Under the pieces are notes generated by a model. It had not been told where the DNA came from, searched no databases, and worked only from the letters and a program-made list of their open reading frames with translations. From IMG/VR virus record IMGVR_UViG_2698536651_000007: a stretch of DNA of 18,266 nt; one strand, given 5' to 3'. The stretch comes from a virus. Lineage: Duplodnaviria > Heunggongvirae > Uroviricota > Caudoviricetes. The position numbers were made by a program, and so were the translations under genes. This document shows, one piece after another, positions 5,024-16,627 of this stretch (position 1 is its first letter; every line of letters begins with the position of its first letter).

Positions 5024-5305
5024 TGAGATTGTGGTGCTTTTTGTGGGAGTCATCCACTTACGCACTTTGTTTTGCCATGCCAGCAGTTAGCTTCTGCTGT
5101 AAAACTATTCATGCAGCAAACCTGCACTTCACCACAATGGTTAGCATACTTTTCCTGATTAAGATTTTGCCAAATATGCTAGCCATTGTTTCATGTATTG
5201 GACCTCCTTACTTTTTATTAAAGAGATCCAATATTCACTACTCTGTCCGTATCTCTACTCAGGCATCAGCCTTCTTCGTTATCGTATACAGACGAGCGAT
5301 GAATT

Positions 5306-5521
5306 TTAATCAGTAATGATGACATTTGCTGCTGCAGGACCTTTAGCACCACTCTCTATAGAGAAGGTAACCTTTTGACCTTCAAATAAGGTTCGATAAT
5401 TATCATTCTGAATCGCAGAAAAATGCACAAACACATCTTTACTACCATCAACAGGAGAAATAAAGCCGAAACCTTTATCAGCGTTAAACCATTTTACTAA
5501 ACCAGTCATTTTATTTGACAT
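5306..5521 (-). CDS. cspB: Cold-shock protein CspB-like (71 aa)
   Basis: [71 protein letters not shown]. Confidence 0.9.
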
Positions 5522-5821
5522 TCTACATTCCTTAACTTGAGCCTTTCGGCATAAATGGTTTGCATAACAGAAACGACTTCGTACTTAATTGGAGAGACTC
5601 AAAGAAGGAATAAGTGAATAACACCTGAAATGAGAACTGCTTTAGTAAACTACTTCGTATATCGTCTGTTCTTCAAACCGACGCAATCATTAACGCATAG
5701 TTGAACATATGAAGCAATGTTTATTTTAGACATCCAGCCATCTTCAACCCCATCAAAAAACTATAGCTTTCTTCAGGAACGTGTGTATAGTGCGCCAAGT
5801 TATCAGTATTAAGGAATTTTT

Positions 5822-8999: not shown

Positions 9000-9017
9000 A
9001 ACCCGCCGAAGCGGGTT
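9000..9017 (-). terminator. Intrinsic terminator downstream of hokD on the minus strand (stem cccgc/gcggg, UUCG loop, then UUUUUGUUUUUAUUU)
   Basis: Hairpin aacccgc-cgaa-gcgggtt with a long T-tract on the minus strand. Confidence 0.6.
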
Positions 9018-9085
9018 AAGTGCGGGTGCGTTGAGGATGCCTGCCACATCAGAGGTGGCGAGGGATTTCTCCCCCGCCGGGTCTC

Positions 9086-9241
9086 TTACTCCTCAGGTTC
9101 GTAAGCTGTGAAGACAGCGACCTCCGTCTGGCCGGTTCGGATTCGTACCTCGCAGAGGTCTTTCCTCGTTACCAGTGCCGTCACTATGACGGTTAAACAG
9201 ATGACGATCAGGGCGATTAACATCGCCTTTTGCTGCTTCAT
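9086..9241 (-). CDS. hokD: Hok-family membrane toxin HokD/RelF (51 aa)
   Basis: Reverse-complement translation MKQQKAMLIALIVICLTVIVTALVTRKDLCEVRIRTGQTEVAVFTAYEPEE. Not in the ORF track (under 60 aa); the + strand ORF 9108-9329 is its antisense. Confidence 0.9.
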   Translation of the reverse strand: MKQQKAMLIALIVICLTVIVTALVTRKDLCEVRIRTGQTEVAVFTAYEPEE

Positions 9242-9312
9242 AGCCTGCTTCTCCTGTCAACGCAAAGCAGAAGTGTCACCTTCGGTGCGAAACAGAGATG
9301 TCATGCTTTGGT

Positions 9313-9600
9313 TCAGAGAATGCGTTTGACCGCCTCGCTATATACTTCCGAGCGTTCTCTTTTCCCAACAGAAATCACGAAAACGACAACTTTCTCGTCT
9401 ATAACCTGGTATACAAGGCGATAGCCTGAAGACCGGAGCTTAATCTTGTAACAATCAGGCATACCACGGAGCTTGTTTGCTTCAATCCGGGGTGACTCAA
9501 GTACTTCAACCAGCTTCTTTTTCAACTGTTCACGTACCGTCGAGCCCAGCTTTCGCCATTCCTTTAGTGCCCGCTCGTCAAAATCCAGAAAATACGCCAT
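9313..9600 (-). CDS. relE: RelE mRNA interferase toxin (95 aa)
   Basis: MAYFLDFDERALKEWRKLGSTVREQLKKKLVEVLESPRIEANKLRGMPDCYKIKLRSSGYRLVYQVIDEKVVVFVISVGKRERSEVYSEAVKRIL. Confidence 0.9.
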   Translation of the reverse strand: MAYFLDFDERALKEWRKLGSTVREQLKKKLVEVLESPRIEANKLRGMPDCYKIKLRSSGYRLVYQVIDEKVVVFVISVGKRERSEVYSEAVKRIL

Positions 9601-9839
9601 CAGAGTTCATCCAGCGTCACACGTACTGGCTTAGGATTACGAAGCCGTTCTTTCACTATCTCCACAAGTTCAGCATCTTCATCACTCAGGAGTGTCTGTT
9701 TGAACGGCAAGCGTTCATTGTCAGCGATATACTCGAGCATGAGACGAAGCGCTTCAGAAGGAGTTACACCCATTTTTTCAAGCGCGGCGTAAGAACGCGC
9801 TTTAAGTTCATCGTCAATACGCAGGTTAATGCTACCCAT
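9600..9839 (-). CDS. relB: RelB antitoxin (79 aa, RHH); 1-nt overlap with relE
   Basis: MGSINLRIDDELKARSYAALEKMGVTPSEALRLMLEYIADNERLPFKQTLLSDEDAELVEIVKERLRNPKPVRVTLDEL. Confidence 0.9.
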   Translation of the reverse strand: MGSINLRIDDELKARSYAALEKMGVTPSEALRLMLEYIADNERLPFKQTLLSDEDAELVEIVKERLRNPKPVRVTLDEL

Positions 9840-9852
9840 GTCTTACACCTCT

Positions 9853-9877
9853 TGTAATTACAAATGTCATTACAAGT
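9853..9877 (-). promoter_or_regulatory. relBE promoter/operator (relO) with palindrome ttgtaattacaa and a repeated attacaa motif
   Basis: Palindromic TTGTAA/TTACAA element directly upstream of the relB start, consistent with the known RelB2-RelE operator architecture. Confidence 0.5.
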
Positions 9878-10010
9878 ATCGCACTACAACATGCTTAGGG
9901 CAAGTCACGAAGGAAGTCAGAAAGTAGTCGTAAGAACGGTGATCACTGTCCGCTTTGTGCCAATAGCGGACATTGCTGGCTCATGGTATGTTAGTTTAAG
10001 GAGGCAGGTT

Positions 10011-11033
10011 ATGCCCTGTATTTCGCTGTGGTATAATAGTTGCGCAATTGATACAAGGGAGCGTTACATCGTGAAAATTGTTTTCGAGGTTAATGGAAAG
10101 AAAGTTCCACTAAAATCTTTAAAATACATAAGCAAAAAAGATCAACTCGAAGTAATGAAAAACTGGTTCTTTGAAAACTTTGAAGATCCGGCAAATGCTT
10201 GTCCGTATGAAAGTAGAGAAGGTGGCTATGCTTACATATATGGCGGGCCGTATGATGCGAGCGAAGAACTACAATCCATCTTCGGTCAATATGTTAAATC
10301 TGAGTATATTGAGGAATTAGTAGATGAATTACAAACACAATGTTTTGACTGGTCTGGAAACTCAAATAATATAGATGATTGGTACGATGATGATATCTAC
10401 GACGCTGTAACGTCTTCCGGTAATCCGTATTTAAAATTCATTGATAATATCGATAAAATAAAAAAACTTGCAAAAGATAAAACTGAACAACAGCAAAAAA
10501 ACCACTTGCTTAGTTTGCTCTACACGAATGTTATTACAGCTTTGGAAACGCTTTATGTTGAGCTATTCATTAATTCTATAGAGAAAGATGATGTCTACAT
10601 AGCCAATTGTATAGAAAAAGGTAAGACTGAATTTAAAGTAAGCAAAGATATTGCTGCGTTGCCTTTCAAGGGTGAACCCATCGAGAAAATTAGGGGAGAG
10701 CTAATCAGGTCAATCAAGGAACACTTGATCAGTGCAAGCTGGCATAGCACTAAAAAGGTAATCGACCGCTATGAAGCTACATTCGATATAAAAGTACAAA
10801 AAGACTGTCCGATAGAAGCTATTGAATTGGCAACCCTCAATCGAAATCACTTAGTGCATCGTGGTGGAAAGGATAAAGAAGGGAACCTCGTAGTGATTAC
10901 AGACCAGGATCTTGAAACGCTGATTGAAAATGCATCGAACCTGGCAATTATGCTCTACAACAGTTTAAATGTAGCAACGAATAAAACCACCATTTTGCAA
11001 CCAGATGACAAACCGTTCATTCATGAATTTTAA
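10011..11033 (+). CDS. Hypothetical protein A of the AT-rich two-gene cassette (340 aa from ATG 10011; 320 aa if GTG 10071 is used); HEPN-like RNxxxH motif near the C-terminus
   Basis: ATG 10011 has AAGGAGG at 6-nt spacing; the alternative GTG 10071 has AAGGGAG and the candidate promoter upstream. Motif NRNHLVHRGG at 10839-10868. Visibly AT-rich relative to flanks. No homolog recognised. Confidence 0.7.
   Translation: MPCISLWYNSCAIDTRERYIVKIVFEVNGKKVPLKSLKYISKKDQLEVMKNWFFENFEDPANACPYESREGGYAYIYGGPYDASEELQSIFGQYVKSEYIEELVDELQTQCFDWSGNSNNIDDWYDDDIYDAVTSSGNPYLKFIDNIDKIKKLAKDKTEQQQKNHLLSLLYTNVITALETLYVELFINSIEKDDVYIANCIEKGKTEFKVSKDIAALPFKGEPIEKIRGELIRSIKEHLISASWHSTKKVIDRYEATFDIKVQKDCPIEAIELATLNRNHLVHRGGKDKEGNLVVITDQDLETLIENASNLAIMLYNSLNVATNKTTILQPDDKPFIHEF
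10029..10037 (+). promoter_or_regulatory. Candidate extended -10 element TGgTATAAT for the downstream AT-rich cassette
   Basis: tgGTATAATag at 10029-10039. It would place a transcription start about 10 nt upstream of the AAGGGAG SD that precedes the GTG at 10071. Confidence 0.35.
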
Positions 11034-11048
11034 TAGCGCAGGTCATAC

Positions 11049-12050
11049 ATGGATATTCGCACACGAAAGACAAAATTTTTAGAGTCGTTAGATTCAACTG
11101 AAGTGATACGCAAAGCAGTAAGTCTCGCTATAGATTGCATTATTGATAATCATAATAGTAATGAAGATACCCCCTTAGTTATTACCAGCTATGATGATCT
11201 CTGTAGAATCCAGGTGCTAAATTATGTACAGGAGTTTTGCGAAGCTGCATTCCCTGATATGGATGAATATTACTTTAGTCCTAACATACTTCGCATCAAC
11301 GGCAAGACTAGTGAAGAAGCTTGTATTAACTTAATTAAACTCTTAAGAAGTACAAAAGGCATGCTATTCTGGTCCGATGCCCCATCGTGGTTCGCTAGCC
11401 TCCCCGACGGATTATTCCATGTTGTTAACATTGATCAAAAAATCGTTACTCGCGGCCTTAATAAGAAAAACTCTAAGCCGACAATAATCAATAAAGATTA
11501 CAGTGTAGATACACTACTATCAGAGCTATTTTTGAATGGCGCACACATGGAGCAACCCAACGTACACAACGTTTCTGAGGGAAACATGAAGTTCTATGAT
11601 GAATGCCATGCTGGATTAATCAGACCAATACCCGCTCCAATAGGCGCGTCATACGATGAAGAGATCACAATTAATTCTCCAGATTGGCAAAAGCTCGCGT
11701 GTGTAGCTTTACGCCGCTATCAGTCGAAGGAATGTCATGACGGAATGCAATGGGATACAACCGATCATGGTTGGACTGATGTAATCGCGTATCCATTCGT
11801 CGAAGAAATACAATCAATGGATAATAGTGGTTATCGACAATGTTTAGTTGGGCTGGTCACAATAAACAATTCAAATGCAAATTCTCCGTACCTATCTACC
11901 GTTTGGATACATCCATTTTATCGCAGGAGAGGGTTATTAAGTAAGTTATGGCCAAAATTACAAGAGTTATATGGAAGTAACTTCGAAATTGAGCGACCTA
12001 ATGAAAATATGAAAGCATTTCTGAAAAGTGCGAAACACGCAGATTACTAA
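11049..12050 (+). CDS. Hypothetical protein B of the cassette (333 aa); possible GNAT-like segment near the C-terminus
   Basis: ATG 15 nt after the stop of A, so probably an operon. …STVWIHPFYRRRGLLSKLWPKL… resembles GNAT motif A (tentative). AT-rich. No homolog recognised. Confidence 0.7.
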   Translation: MDIRTRKTKFLESLDSTEVIRKAVSLAIDCIIDNHNSNEDTPLVITSYDDLCRIQVLNYVQEFCEAAFPDMDEYYFSPNILRINGKTSEEACINLIKLLRSTKGMLFWSDAPSWFASLPDGLFHVVNIDQKIVTRGLNKKNSKPTIINKDYSVDTLLSELFLNGAHMEQPNVHNVSEGNMKFYDECHAGLIRPIPAPIGASYDEEITINSPDWQKLACVALRRYQSKECHDGMQWDTTDHGWTDVIAYPFVEEIQSMDNSGYRQCLVGLVTINNSNANSPYLSTVWIHPFYRRRGLLSKLWPKLQELYGSNFEIERPNENMKAFLKSAKHADY

Positions 12051-12329
12051 TTTATGAATCAGTCTGTGGAGTTAGGGTTGGTGTGAACAAGTAGGGTAAG
12101 AGCCTCAACGTGATGCTATGCCGACCTGCTCCCTGAGAATTCACACAGAAGGCTGCTAGCAATGTCTGCAGATCGCTCTTAGCGGACATTAGCATAGGCT
12201 ATTTACCATAACGCCTCATTACGCGCACCGCCCAGACTGACTCAGCGCGTTTCTGGCATATCCCCGGTAAAACAAGTAACAAACCACCCGAAAATGAACA
12301 CCAGAAACGCGACTTAAGAATCTACCCTA

Positions 12330-13720
12330 TGAATGGATATGCACTCAACCGAATCGATCTTGGTTTCAATCTTTTTTATCGGGATCAGGCTTCTTTTTAG
12401 GTAACTTCGGGGGCTTAACTTGCTGATGACTTTGCGTTCGGCGCGTAAGCCAGGGATGGTCAGCTTTAGGTTTAACATAGTATTTTGAGCGTAAATCAAT
12501 ACGGGCATTATCCACTCGTTCATGGACACTCTTTTCATCATCCAGTGGTATAGGCTCCGGGCCATCAACATACTTTTCCCAGCCCAGCGCTTTCCCGTCA
12601 TACAGAACGTTAATTTCACCGTCAAAGTTCTCGCATACAGTAACAACCGAATGCCTAAGTCGATATCCCCGGCCCTCACTGCGTACCTGAAACGCACTGC
12701 TTTTGTACTGGAAAGTGAGATTTTTAGACAGAACGCGCTTCGCCTGTAGGCTGAAGATATAACCCAGTTCCTCTTCAGAATGGTGCACATCAAGATGAGC
12801 ATTATCAGTAGTACGAGGCGACGTAGCGAACCGGTTGTTATAGGCTTCAATAAAGGTCGGCAACCATGCATTTGCTGTTTCAATATCACTGATATTCTGA
12901 AGCCGCATTTCTTTGACCAGCCTGTCCTGTAGTGTCTGATTGGCGCGCTCTACCCGCCCTTTTGCCTGCGGGCTGTTGGCATGGATTGGCTCGATGCCCA
13001 GTGTCTTTATCGCACGAGTGAACTGGGTCAGCTCACCTTCCCGCTCTGGGTTATTTACCCTGAATATACTGTGTCTATCAGAGTAGAGAGCGAGCGGTAC
13101 GCCATGATCATTAAGGTAACCCCGGAGGGTTTCCATGTAAGCCCGGGTTGTTTCAGCAGGCACAAAACGCAACGCCATCAACGCACTGGTGGCATCATCA
13201 ATGAAAACGATCAGTGTACATCTGGGGCCTCGATTTTCAAACCAGTCATGAGGTGAGCCATCAATCTGGATCAGTTCACCGTAAGATGGTCGTCGCATGC
13301 GGCGTTGATATATACGGGCAATTTTACGACGGCGTTCACGCCATAACCCCTCTTCTATCATCCACTTTCTGAGAGTTTCAACGGATAAAGATAAACCGTG
13401 TATCTCGCGCAATTTTTCGCACGCAAACGTAGGTCCAAAATCAGCGTAACGGCCTTTGAGGAGTGAAATTACTGTTGCTCTGAATTCAGTAGAAAAGGAA
13501 TTATTAGGACGCTTTCCACGTCGGTGGGAAACCAGACCAGAAGGCCCTTCATTTCTATACCGTTGCACCAGACGTTTAACCTGCCGAATAGAAATGCCAA
13601 TGCGTGCCGCAGCTTGTTCCTGAATAATCTGAAGTCGGTGGAGTTCCTTATGACTCATCGTAACAGTCTCTTTGATCATGAAAAATCCCCCAGAGAATTG
13701 TCTGGGGACATTTTAGAATG
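12330..13720 (-). mobile_element. Insertion sequence carrying the DDE transposase; termini not resolved, so coordinates are a minimum approximate extent
   Basis: Transposase gene present; no convincing terminal inverted repeats or target-site duplication could be identified by eye. Confidence 0.35.
12366..13679 (-). CDS. DDE (rve/integrase-core) transposase with N-terminal HTH; IS481/ISNCY-like
   Basis: 437 aa. HTH-like N-terminus (ARIGISIRQVKRLVQRY), DDE candidates (…IQIDGSPHDW…, …IVFIDDATS…, …KGRVERANQTLQ…), basic C-terminal tail. GGGGGA SD before the ATG at 13679. Confidence 0.8.
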   Translation of the reverse strand: MIKETVTMSHKELHRLQIIQEQAAARIGISIRQVKRLVQRYRNEGPSGLVSHRRGKRPNNSFSTEFRATVISLLKGRYADFGPTFACEKLREIHGLSLSVETLRKWMIEEGLWRERRRKIARIYQRRMRRPSYGELIQIDGSPHDWFENRGPRCTLIVFIDDATSALMALRFVPAETTRAYMETLRGYLNDHGVPLALYSDRHSIFRVNNPEREGELTQFTRAIKTLGIEPIHANSPQAKGRVERANQTLQDRLVKEMRLQNISDIETANAWLPTFIEAYNNRFATSPRTTDNAHLDVHHSEEELGYIFSLQAKRVLSKNLTFQYKSSAFQVRSEGRGYRLRHSVVTVCENFDGEINVLYDGKALGWEKYVDGPEPIPLDDEKSVHERVDNARIDLRSKYYVKPKADHPWLTRRTQSHQQVKPPKLPKKKPDPDKKD

Positions 13721-14013
13721 GTTCAAAGGGGACATTACAGCTTGGTGTTAACAATAGCCTGCTTCTCCGTGCCTTTCGGCACGTAAGAGGCTAACCTACA
13801 TGTGTCTAGCATGAAATTGGCCTCAGATTAATGTTAAGCGTCTTGCAGGACGCGTAATGTTAACTGGGGCTTTTCTCTATCTGCCGTTGGTGTCCATGCC
13901 CGAGGCAGATAGCCTCAAGCACCCGCAGTCATTCTACTTAACTAAGATTTCCCCGCAAACCGTTTTTGTCCAGCACAGTAAATATCCAACTAAACCAATG
14001 GAGTTCGCTGTAT

Positions 14014-14193
14014 TTACCGCCAGTATTCAATGCACATGACCGCCATGAACACCCCTAAAAAAAGGGCATTTATATATCCAAATATTAATATCAAAACATC
14101 AACTTTTTCCATATACCTTGCTGTGAAGATGATGGGCATACATGATGCGAACAACCAGAACGCAACAAACAAAAACTGCAATGCGTTTTTCAT
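14014..14193 (-). CDS. Small hydrophobic membrane protein (59 aa, two predicted TM segments)
   Basis: AGGAGG SD 4-5 nt before the ATG at 14193. MKNALQFLFVAFWLFASCMPIIFTARYMEKVDVLILIFGYINALFLGVFMAVMCIEYWR. AT-rich context. Confidence 0.5.
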   Translation of the reverse strand: MKNALQFLFVAFWLFASCMPIIFTARYMEKVDVLILIFGYINALFLGVFMAVMCIEYWR

Positions 14194-14659
14194 TATTCCT
14201 CCTACAATCAATGTGCAATTACATTTAAACACACCTCAATTTGGCCGGACATATAAATATCTAAACCAGAAAAAATCACTTACATAGCGTTACAAACTCT
14301 TTAGTCTAAAGGTTCATCGTAAAACATTCCCCATACTTATCAGTCCGTTCCGCGCCAGGTAGCTCATTGCCTTATCTGGCAACCTGTAATCAGGTTTCCG
14401 CTTTTTCAGTTGGCTGGTCGTTTAACCGACATAGTTAATCCATTAATCTAGTTGCCGGATGTTGGTGGATTTTCGCGTTTTAGTTGTTCATAAAAGTGCA
14501 CAGCTTTAACCAGTTCTTCTGATGTAACTGGGACTGGTGAGGCAGTGAATAAGGCCTGAATTTGATAGTTCGGCCTGTCGTTACAATCCTCTTTTTTCGG
14601 TACATATTTCCAGTCACCAGACCACTACTTCCCCTGAAAGTCCGTATCCGGAGCTTAAG

Positions 14660-16627
14660 TTGCACGCCATTGGGTGGGTTAAGCATAAATGTATTCCTGG
14701 TGCTAAATGGCCCGAAATTCAGGCAGAGATGCGCATCTGGAAAAAACGTCGCGAAGGTGAACGCAAGGAAACCGGAAAATACACGTCTGTTGTTGATCTC
14801 GCCCGCGCCAGAGCCAATCAACAGTACACTGAAAATTCAACAGGAAAAATCAGCCCGGTCATTGCTGCCATTCATCGCGAATACAAGCAGACATGGAAAA
14901 CACTGGATGACGAACTGGCCTACGCTCTCTGGCCTAGTGATGTGGATGCCGGAAACATTGACGGCAGCATCCATCGCTGGGCAAAAAAAGAAGTTATCGA
15001 CAACGACCGCGAAGACTGGAAGCGTATCTCGGCATCAATGCGCAAACAGCCTGATGCCCTTCGCTACGACCGCCAAACTATTTTTGGCCTTGTCCGTGAG
15101 CGTCCGATCGACATTCACAAAGATCCCGTAGCACTGAACAAATATATCTGCGAATACCTGACGACAAAGGGCGTGTTTGAGAATGAAGAAACAGACCTGG
15201 GCACTGTTGATGTTCTCCAGTCATCAGAAACACAAACTGATGCAGTGGAAACTGAGGTATCTGATATCCCAAAAAATGAAACCGCGCCGGAAGCTGAACC
15301 ATCTGTAGAGCGTGAGGGGCCGTTCTATTTCCTCTTCGCAGATAAGGACGGAGAAAAATACGGTCGCGCAAACAAACTCTCTGGTCTGGATAAGGCACTG
15401 GCTGCTGGCGCCACTGAAATCACAAAAGAAGAATATTTTGCCCGAAAAAATGGCACATACACGGGCTTACCGCAAAATGTAGATACCGCTGAAGATTCAG
15501 AACAACCAGAGCCGATAAAAGTTACCGCTGACGAAGTAAACAAAATTATGCAGGCAGCCAATATCAGCCAGCCTGACGCCGATAAGTTGCTTGCTGCATC
15601 ACGTGGTGAATTTGTTGAAGGGATTAGTGACCCGAATGATCCGAAATGGGTTAAGGGGCTCCAGACCCGCGATTCTGTGAACCAGAACCAGCATGAATCG
15701 GAACGGAACTACCAAAAAGCGGAACAAAACAGTCCAAATGCGTTACAAAACGAGCCAGAAACGAAACAGCCTGAACCAGTAGCGCAACAGGAAGTGGAAA
15801 AAGTCTGCACCGCCTGCGGTCAGACCGGCGGCGGCAACTGCCCTGATTGTGGCGCGGTGATGGGCGACGCAACATACCAAGAAACATTCGATGAAGAGTA
15901 TCAGGTTGAAGTTCAGGAAGATGATCCGGAGGAAATGGAAGGCGCTGAACATCCACACAAGGAGAACACTGGCGGCAATCAGCATCACAATAGCGATAAT
16001 GAAACTGGCGAGACGGCAGATCACCCAATTAAGGTGAACGGTCATCACGAAATCACATCCACCAGCAGGACGTGTGACCATCTAATGATCGACCTTGAAA
16101 CCATGGGAAAAAATCCTGATGCCCCGATCATCTCAATAGGTGCAATATTTTTCGATCCGCAAACCGGAGATATGGGACCGGAATTTAGTAAGACTATCGA
16201 TCTGGAAACTGCTGGCGGAGTCATTGATCGGGACACCATTAAATGGTGGCTTAAGCAATCACGCGAAGCGCAATCTGCCATTATGACCGATGAAATCCCG
16301 TTAGATGATGCACTGTTACAATTGCGAGAATTTATCGACGAAAACTCCGGTGAATTTTTTGTTCAGGTTTGGGGAAATGGAGCCAACTTCGACAACACGA
16401 TTTTGCGCCGTTCATACGAACGGCAGGGGATCCCCTGCCCGTGGCGTTACTACAACGATCGCGATGTACGCACAATCGTTGAGCTGGGGAAAGCCATAGA
16501 CTTCGATGCCAGAACGGCTATTCCATTCGAAGGTGAGCGCCATAATGCACTTGATGACGCCCGTTACCAGGCAAAATACGTTTCAGTTATCTGGCAAAAA
16601 CTGATCCCGAGTCAGGCTGATTCTTAA
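14660..16627 (+). CDS. Multidomain protein with C-terminal DEDDh (DnaQ-like) 3'-5' exonuclease domain, central acidic linker and CxxC…CxxC zinc ribbon; start uncertain (TTG 14660 or ATG 14726)
   Basis: Exo I motif MIDLETMG (about 16085-16108), Exo II VWGNGANFDNTIL, Exo III HNALDDARYQ (about 16541-16570); zinc ribbon CTACGQTGGGNCPDCG (about 15806). Same strand and position as exo/bet-type genes upstream of xis-int. Confidence 0.7.
   Translation: MHAIGWVKHKCIPGAKWPEIQAEMRIWKKRREGERKETGKYTSVVDLARARANQQYTENSTGKISPVIAAIHREYKQTWKTLDDELAYALWPSDVDAGNIDGSIHRWAKKEVIDNDREDWKRISASMRKQPDALRYDRQTIFGLVRERPIDIHKDPVALNKYICEYLTTKGVFENEETDLGTVDVLQSSETQTDAVETEVSDIPKNETAPEAEPSVEREGPFYFLFADKDGEKYGRANKLSGLDKALAAGATEITKEEYFARKNGTYTGLPQNVDTAEDSEQPEPIKVTADEVNKIMQAANISQPDADKLLAASRGEFVEGISDPNDPKWVKGLQTRDSVNQNQHESERNYQKAEQNSPNALQNEPETKQPEPVAQQEVEKVCTACGQTGGGNCPDCGAVMGDATYQETFDEEYQVEVQEDDPEEMEGAEHPHKENTGGNQHHNSDNETGETADHPIKVNGHHEITSTSRTCDHLMIDLETMGKNPDAPIISIGAIFFDPQTGDMGPEFSKTIDLETAGGVIDRDTIKWWLKQSREAQSAIMTDEIPLDDALLQLREFIDENSGEFFVQVWGNGANFDNTILRRSYERQGIPCPWRYYNDRDVRTIVELGKAIDFDARTAIPFEGERHNALDDARYQAKYVSVIWQKLIPSQADS

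Follow-up and report, generated by a model that had tools for sequence, protein, structure and literature searches.

The window analysed here, by which we mean the whole 18,266-nucleotide stretch of IMG/VR virus record IMGVR_UViG_2698536651_000007, is a Qin-type defective lambdoid prophage of Escherichia coli. Its left part carries the lysis genes, cspB/cspF and the Q-like ydfT, followed by ydfU, rem, hokD and relBE, and its right part an ISNCY insertion sequence, a segment with an ORF and an inverted repeat, a 3'-5' exonuclease gene, xis and int. The minus strand of the window represents what is, in the phage, the rightward early (pR/nin) direction; the pR/immunity region of the prophage is deleted from the window. 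As positions 12550-14644 are absent from the Qin prophage of K-12, neither the 59-aa ORF nor the inverted repeat described below exists in the reference strain. An earlier sequence-only reading had placed the ORF in an AT-rich segment, and the GC content was indeed 0.34-0.36 over 13975-14349 vs 0.44-0.52 in the surroundings.

Two further regions of the window were noted in passing. At 9864-12050 (plus strand), where K-12 lacks 9977-12175, two ORFs stand in place of flxA and the 3' part of ydfV. The 389-aa ORF showed a sub-threshold match to a HEPN/RES N-terminal domain and the 333-aa ORF a sub-threshold GNAT match; PADLOC returned no match for either, and none of the complete E. coli genomes in the collection covered positions 9000-15000 at 80% or more. 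This segment may represent rare cargo inserted into Qin. Rfam cspA-thermoregulator matches were found on the minus strand over the cold-shock paralogues at 2395-2780 and 5290-5682 (113 and 159 bits), the latter at cspB, and such matches are expected for Qin.

For the interval between the IS and the exonuclease gene, the sequence-only reading had proposed a small two-TM membrane-protein gene with a perfect 9-bp inverted repeat just downstream of it. Both the ORF and the repeat are real, and they are two separate elements. On the minus strand the repeat does lie downstream of the ORF, but it belongs to the neighbouring hok locus and not to the ORF. We consider it likely that the interval comprises two adjacent minus-strand elements of the nin (delayed-early) region of a Qin-like lambdoid prophage, namely the tac-stem of a hok leader and a genuine 59-aa membrane-protein gene.

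The ORF (MKNALQFLFVAFWLFASCMPIIFTARYMEKVDVLILIFGYINALFLGVFMAVMCIEYWR) occupies 14014..14193 on the minus strand, with its ATG at 14193..14191 and its stop codon at 14016..14014. A Shine-Dalgarno sequence, AGGAGG (14198..14203, same strand), precedes the ATG by 4 nt, a spacing on the short side; in about 40 of 139 related loci the motif reads GGGGG, in which pairing is kept via G-U. The predicted product is hydrophobic as described earlier, its Kyte-Doolittle profile rising above 2.0 twice (residues 4-25 and 31-55), and AlphaFold2, run on the single sequence, placed helices at residues 3-24 and 31-58 (mean pLDDT 82.6), a result to be read with the caveat that AlphaFold2 and hydropathy yield a helical hairpin for nearly any hydrophobic peptide. 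Since positive charges are found at both the N-terminus (K2; R2 and K3 in the paralogue described below) and the C-terminus (R59), with a neutral or acidic loop between the helices, we infer an N-in/C-in orientation from the positive-inside rule, and the protein is accordingly modelled as a predicted two-helix inner-membrane hairpin with a short periplasmic loop. The ORF was also considered as a Hok/Gef protein in its own right and rejected as such, as no Hok/Gef profile match was obtained in Pfam or NCBIfam at E-values up to 10 and two hydrophobic helices are predicted, against the single N-terminal TM segment and periplasmic Cys tail of Hok.

A phmmer search against 1.84 billion proteins revealed a 59-aa paralogue with 41% identity (E 1.2e-8), corresponding to UniRef A0A2S5RMW9 and labelled 'uncharacterized membrane protein' by JGI. 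The two proteins align end to end and without gaps, with a BLOSUM62 score of 153 vs −39 ± 15 for shuffled sequences (z = 12.6) and 24 identities vs a maximum of 14 in 100,000 shuffles. The DNA of the two ORFs is 59% identical, with 34, 42 and 28 of 59 matches at codon positions 1, 2 and 3, respectively. This two-clade comparison gave a pS of 0.72, a pN of 0.34 and a significant synonymous excess (Fisher's test on rounded counts, p = 9e-5), corresponding to a dN/dS of ∼0.19 that derives from a single deep comparison between just two clades (Escherichia/Shigella). The flanks of the two loci could not be aligned apart from ∼20 nt past the stop codon.

In the two-clade alignment 23 columns are invariant, with the patterns S17-C18-x-P20-I-I-x-T24, F38-G39-x-x-N42-A-L and a terminal I-E-x-W-R. 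The invariant residues comprise S17, C18, P20, I21, I22 and T24 in helix 1 and F38, G39, N42, A43, L44, V48 and F49 in helix 2, followed by I55, E56, W58 and R59, G47 being near-invariant. The four-residue spacing of G39, A43 and G47 in helix 2 is possibly a helix-packing or self-association motif, as judged from the sequence pattern. Two variants common within the clade of the window, I37M and Y40H, change the residue to that of the paralogue.

The paralogue was present in 1045 of 5426 complete E. coli genomes, where it lies in a remnant of the ttcA/Rac attachment site, flanked by an integrase fragment and uspF, and is preceded only by a weak GGGA as Shine-Dalgarno sequence. A decayed fragment of a hok coding sequence was detected 56 nt past its stop codon. 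As hok sequence thus follows the ORF in both clades, the adjacency of ORF and hok must be ancient. In locus L284 (positions 5236-5300; E. coli CP042246.1) this fragment is homologous to hok codons ∼24-45 and contains an internal stop; in this ttcA-uspF remnant of ∼1000 genomes the decayed hok is without its leader and its N-terminal TM segment (the first ∼23 codons).

Conservation in related prophages, on which the earlier proposal of a membrane-protein gene had been made to depend, was assessed in 116 IMG/VR loci sampled via an upstream non-coding DNA pattern, and thus independently of the ORF itself. The ORF was intact in 114 of them (98%) despite a run of seven thymidines, and ORFs of this clade were found in 1585 of the 5426 complete E. 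coli genomes. The codons also exhibit a position-dependent composition, 31 of the 59 codons having T as their second letter (chi-square p = 0.015), with no T-richness at position 3. A scan of GTDB species representatives added three loci, of which L007, being heavily mutated or error-ridden, was left out of the counts.

Database searches with the ORF protein were otherwise negative. Scans of the 59-aa form and of a 72-aa form against Pfam, PHROGs, NCBIfam and PADLOC returned nothing, no PADLOC defence or exclusion family matched either clade, a sequence profile search of the PDB gave no relative, and Foldseek against BFVD found generic helical hairpins only (best E = 0.77). Word-indexed homology searches with the single sequence and with the two-clade profile revealed no relatives outside Escherichia/Shigella. 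A literature search for the peptide sequence gave no papers, and no RefSeq feature was located under the ORF among the matches listed (70 rows). The protein therefore belongs to no described family and constitutes a new, narrowly distributed member of the small phage-borne membrane peptides. Two other frames over the same DNA were considered and rejected. The 72-aa form, a GTG extension of the ORF, is not conserved in the paralogue. An antisense frame of 83-85 aa (14030-14287, plus strand), entered as 'hornerin' or 'hypothetical protein' in phage GenBank records, has no Shine-Dalgarno sequence and is not open in the paralogue, so its annotation is probably a mis-annotation.

The strongest rival to a genuine gene is a chance open frame of 59 codons in an AT- and T-rich non-coding spacer, in which T-richness alone would account for the hydrophobicity. 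Such a frame would be expected to escape a RefSeq/PGAP call, as was the case among the matches listed, and to show neither a family match nor a promoter; indeed, a scan detected no convincing sigma-70-like promoter for the ORF in either clade. The variation within the clade of the window fits it as well. Divergence there is at most 2.2% and no lower than in the adjacent 75 nt of non-coding DNA upstream, and 12 of the 13 segregating substitutions are non-synonymous and one is synonymous, so that recent purifying selection is not demonstrable. Many frameshifted or IS-truncated variants of the ORF were present in public protein sets. Scoring of the same 13 substitutions in all six frames gave no convincing alternative, a minus-strand frame with 7 of 13 synonymous being interrupted by stops. 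A chance frame, however, explains neither the second clade, in which length, start and stop are identical at 41% protein identity and a dN/dS of ∼0.19 while the flanks are unalignable, nor the fact that this is the sole frame open in both clades, nor the codon-position periodicity, nor its integrity in nearly all of the neutrally sampled loci in the face of the T7 run. We therefore regard the chance frame as unlikely. The ORF very probably encodes a protein that has been under selection, and the most likely interpretation of the 59 codons is a real, uncharacterised small membrane-protein gene of Qin-like lambdoid prophages, which upholds the earlier proposal of a small two-TM protein gene in the early (nin) region as very probably genuine.

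In intact relatives the ORF is situated in the nin region, where it has the same orientation as the O/P-like replication genes that precede it and as hok, ydfU, rusA and Q that follow it, and in most relatives it lies directly upstream of a complete HokD-type hok/sok locus. From the co-orientation with the rightward early operon and the lack of a recognisable promoter of its own, we infer that the ORF would be translated from read-through, antiterminated early transcripts during lytic growth or induction. Since the window has lost the immunity/pR region, expression of the ORF there is doubtful. Toxins, exclusion factors and membrane modulators have repeatedly been found among the small hydrophobic proteins of prophages, and T4 Imm, pinholin S21 and GhoT are examples of small two-TM membrane peptides of known function from phages or prophages. 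Our best guess for the ORF protein is a small oligomerising accessory protein in the membrane, such as an exclusion or membrane-perturbing factor. Any specific activity, be it as a toxin, an exclusion factor or a membrane modulator, can be assigned only with low confidence; no family match supports the earlier suggestion of a toxin or superinfection-exclusion factor.

The constant position of the ORF before hok offers a concrete and testable hypothesis, namely that the 59-aa protein is functionally coupled to hok/sok, either as a Hok modulator or immunity factor or as a second toxin under the same module. A hok leader, complete or cut by the IS, directly follows the ORF in all 138 of 138 loci of the clade of the window, and the decayed hok remnant past the stop of the paralogue extends the association to the second clade. 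No terminator was found between the ORF and the hok promoter, and the ORF and hok would each give rise to a small peptide of the inner membrane. Inheritance of a short block from a common ancestor can nevertheless explain the linkage, and other hok loci (933W, plasmids, K-12 hokB and hokC) have unrelated upstream neighbours. Furthermore, at the locus of the paralogue more than 1000 genomes keep an intact ORF next to a defunct hok, which argues for a Hok-independent role or for no selection. Functional coupling is thus possible and not favoured, and we rate it as rather improbable. A slightly less probable form of the same idea is that the ORF protein and the downstream hok/sok make up one prophage module, in which the protein gates, antagonises or cooperates with Hok or acts as a second toxin produced by read-through. 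If that were true, the leader and sok in IS-cut copies would constitute an orphan antitoxin against incoming HokD-type elements.

The second element, the inverted repeat, was confirmed as a perfect 9-bp repeat whose arms are 18 nt apart and which is accompanied by a T/U tract on neither strand, its left arm (ctatctgcc on the plus strand) lying at 13877-13885 and its right arm (ggcagatag on the plus strand) at 13904-13912. Six distinct perfect 9-bp inverted repeats were counted in the window, amounting to 10 nine-mer hits vs 2.7 ± 1.9 hits in dinucleotide shuffles. On its own the repeat is statistically unexceptional, and its significance comes not from its length but from the Rfam match that encloses it. 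This match, to RF01794 ('sok'), which models the 5' leader of the hok mRNA together with the region targeted by Sok, runs from 13924 to 13753 on the minus strand with 104.1 bits (gathering threshold 59; E 4.3e-23) and covers model positions 1-157 of 157. The arms of the repeat correspond to model positions 13-49, the core of the first long helix of the model. In agreement with this assignment of 13753..13924 (minus strand) to the 5' leader of a hok-family mRNA, a megablast search against phage genomes showed that positions 13754-13967 are 92-93% identical to the annotated hokW/mokW/sokW of phage 933W and relatives.

The minimum free energy (MFE) structure of the first 62 nt of the leader (−28.5 kcal/mol) coincides exactly with the tac-stem of the Rfam model and has the 9-bp repeat in its middle, which, together with covariation, defines the tac-stem hairpin of the open conformation at 13865..13924 (minus strand). 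In the RNA the right arm forms the 5' half and the left arm the 3' half of the core helix. For the first 35 nt an alternative, metastable 5' hairpin was predicted (nt 3-29; −18.8 kcal/mol), and this hairpin was also contained in the predicted MFE structure of the 172-nt leader. In order to examine conservation of the helix, nine distinct hok leaders were aligned, comprising those of the window, phages 640R1 and 933W, K-12 hokB and hokC, and four distinct ones from plasmids. The 9-bp helix was 97.5% paired across the nine leaders, a value that fell to 38-49% when the partner strand was slid by 1-3 columns. Compensatory changes were observed at two of the nine pairs (A-U/U-A and C-G/U-A), with G-U intermediates at a third. 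Over all 16 pairs of the tac-stem, pairing was 97.2% in the nine leaders and double changes occurred at three pairs. The pairing, the compensatory changes and the RF01794 match together identify the repeat as an RNA switch element.

The roles of the tac, ucb and fbi elements in the hok mRNA switch have been summarised previously (PMC9841398). In the nascent transcript the 5' end (tac) is paired locally in a metastable hairpin; in the full-length mRNA tac pairs with the 3' fbi element, and ucb sequesters the mok ribosome-binding site; and the 3'-trimmed mRNA refolds to a tac/ucb stem that permits mok/hok translation and Sok binding (PMC9841398). According to the predicted folds, the window sequence encodes the first and the last of these three states, the metastable hairpin and the tac-stem. 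With the repeat as tac-stem core, refolding after processing would, in a complete locus, free the mok ribosome-binding site and expose the Sok target. An intrinsic terminator, which would require a GC-rich stem with a U-tract, had already been doubted for the repeat, and in keeping with this a scan gave no terminator-like site at 13877-13912, and neither strand has a T-run after it. The earlier suggestion of a protein-binding or recombination site, under which the DNA of the repeat would be recognised by a repressor, recombinase or transposase or would be a hot spot of recombination, could be taken to gain from the two perfectly palindromic 9-bp arms, the 18-bp spacer, the missing U-tract and an IS end ∼125 bp away. 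It is very improbable, as the repeat lies within a full-length RF01794 match, forms the thermodynamic core of the 5' hairpin of the leader, recurs as the same helix in hok loci of plasmids, chromosomes and phages without a nearby IS, varies by compensatory and G-U changes that preserve RNA pairing and not the DNA sequence, and has a length that is not rare among inverted repeats of the window. The inverted repeat is a known RNA structural element, the core of the hok tac-stem, nothing substantive speaking against it, and the result is corrective in that an apparent DNA-binding site turns out to be a textbook RNA switch element.

The remainder of the locus was mapped by comparison with its homologues. 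The +1 of the hok mRNA would correspond to G13924, preceded by a putative promoter at 13931..13959 (minus strand) with a −10 TAGAAT at 13936..13931 and a −35 TTGCGG/TTTGCG at ∼13959..13953; the assignment follows from position and from conservation with 933W hokW, and a consensus promoter scan did not flag it. A putative Sok-like antisense RNA gene was located at 13804..13876 (plus strand) by alignment to annotated sokW (933W) and sokC (K-12), with which its sequence is collinear, and homology places its promoter at GTGCCT (−35, 13769-13774, plus strand) and TAACCT (−10, 13792-13797). The −35 reads GTGCCT here vs TTGCCT in 933W and 640R1 and TTGACC in K-12 sokC (hokC locus), and this T>G may be a down-mutation in an antitoxin promoter that was left without a toxin to control. 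The mok frame starts at an ATG at 13812 and is truncated to 25 codons (MLDTCRLASYVPKGTEKQAIVNTKL*; 13735..13812, minus strand) as it runs into IS sequence.

This ISNCY-family insertion sequence extends over 12366..13753 (minus strand), with a transposase of 437 aa at 12366..13679, and abuts the hok leader at 13753|13754, such that the G of the hok ATG and everything beyond it are replaced. Convincing terminal repeats that could define the ends of the element were not found. The window is collinear with the intact hok locus of vB_EcoS-640R1 through promoter, leader, sok region and mok start up to ...GCAGGCTAT. Past ...GGAGAAGCAGGCTAT, 640R1 reads G AAG CAG CAA (Hok: MKQQKAM...), whereas the window reads IS sequence. 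Neither a hok coding sequence nor a hok 3' UTR or fbi element was present after the leader, from which a transcript would continue into the IS. [quoted passage not shown] With the hok ATG onward replaced by ISNCY no toxin can be made from this copy, and the stem is a relic; the hok/sok locus is decapitated, a remnant and not a working toxin-antitoxin system. Among 101 IMG/VR loci found via the DNA pattern upstream of the ORF, 75 had a complete HokD-type hok coding sequence after the leader, and 24 shared the IS junction of the window, indicating that the IS-cut state is a common derived allele. The window positions 12366-12515 (minus strand) correspond to K-12 YdfW (b1567), which matches the final 49 codons of the ISNCY transposase, intact here with 437 aa; YdfW is therefore an IS remnant and not a gene of its own.

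The leaderless hokD (relF) coding sequence is found at 9086..9241, on the same strand as the orphan leader and 4.5 kb from it. Both the coding sequence and its 3' flank are nearly the same as in the 3' half of the hok locus that vB_EcoS-640R1 carries intact. The orphan leader with sok and the leaderless hokD correspond to the 5' and 3' halves of the 640R1 hok locus, including neighbours: the small ORF upstream is kept with the leader half, and the 92-aa ORF and ydfU downstream are kept with the hokD half. K-12 has the hokD half only. A split of the hok locus by a single insertion was considered, and the flanks fit it, but both pieces keep the same 15 nt, GGAGAAGCAGGCTAT, so that one step is insufficient.

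These results do not overturn current understanding; their value lies in better annotation and in a candidate for small-protein study. The Qin variant of the window carries the 5' half of a hok/sok locus, a half that is wholly missing from E. coli K-12. Next to it lies what is very probably a member of an unnamed small membrane-protein family, which between about a fifth and a third of the complete E. coli genomes contain and which RefSeq leaves unannotated among the matches listed.

Compared with known hok/sok systems, the promoter position, the +1 GGGUGCUUGAGG, the metastable hairpin, the tac-stem, the Sok-complementary region, the sok terminator and the mok start are all collinear in the window, whereas ISNCY has taken the place of the Hok coding sequence, of the 3' fbi element and of most of mok. 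The hokD (relF) gene of the relBEF operon of Qin is related in that the intact hok that follows this leader in relatives encodes a peptide identical to HokD, and differs in that it is located 4.5 kb away behind relBE and has neither hok leader nor sok. The paralogue resembles the 59-aa ORF in its equal length, 41% identity, common invariant positions and the hok-derived sequence directly downstream, but it resides in a chromosomal remnant with no recognisable prophage, has a weak Shine-Dalgarno sequence, and its hok leader is deleted. By analogy only, the ORF protein can be likened to T4 Imm, pinholin S21 and GhoT, which are of similar size (∼55-85 aa), have the two-helix hairpin architecture predicted for it and are likewise phage- or prophage-encoded; it differs from them in having no sequence or profile similarity to described families and in being encoded in the nin region, not in a lysis cassette, with no recognisable antitoxin partner.
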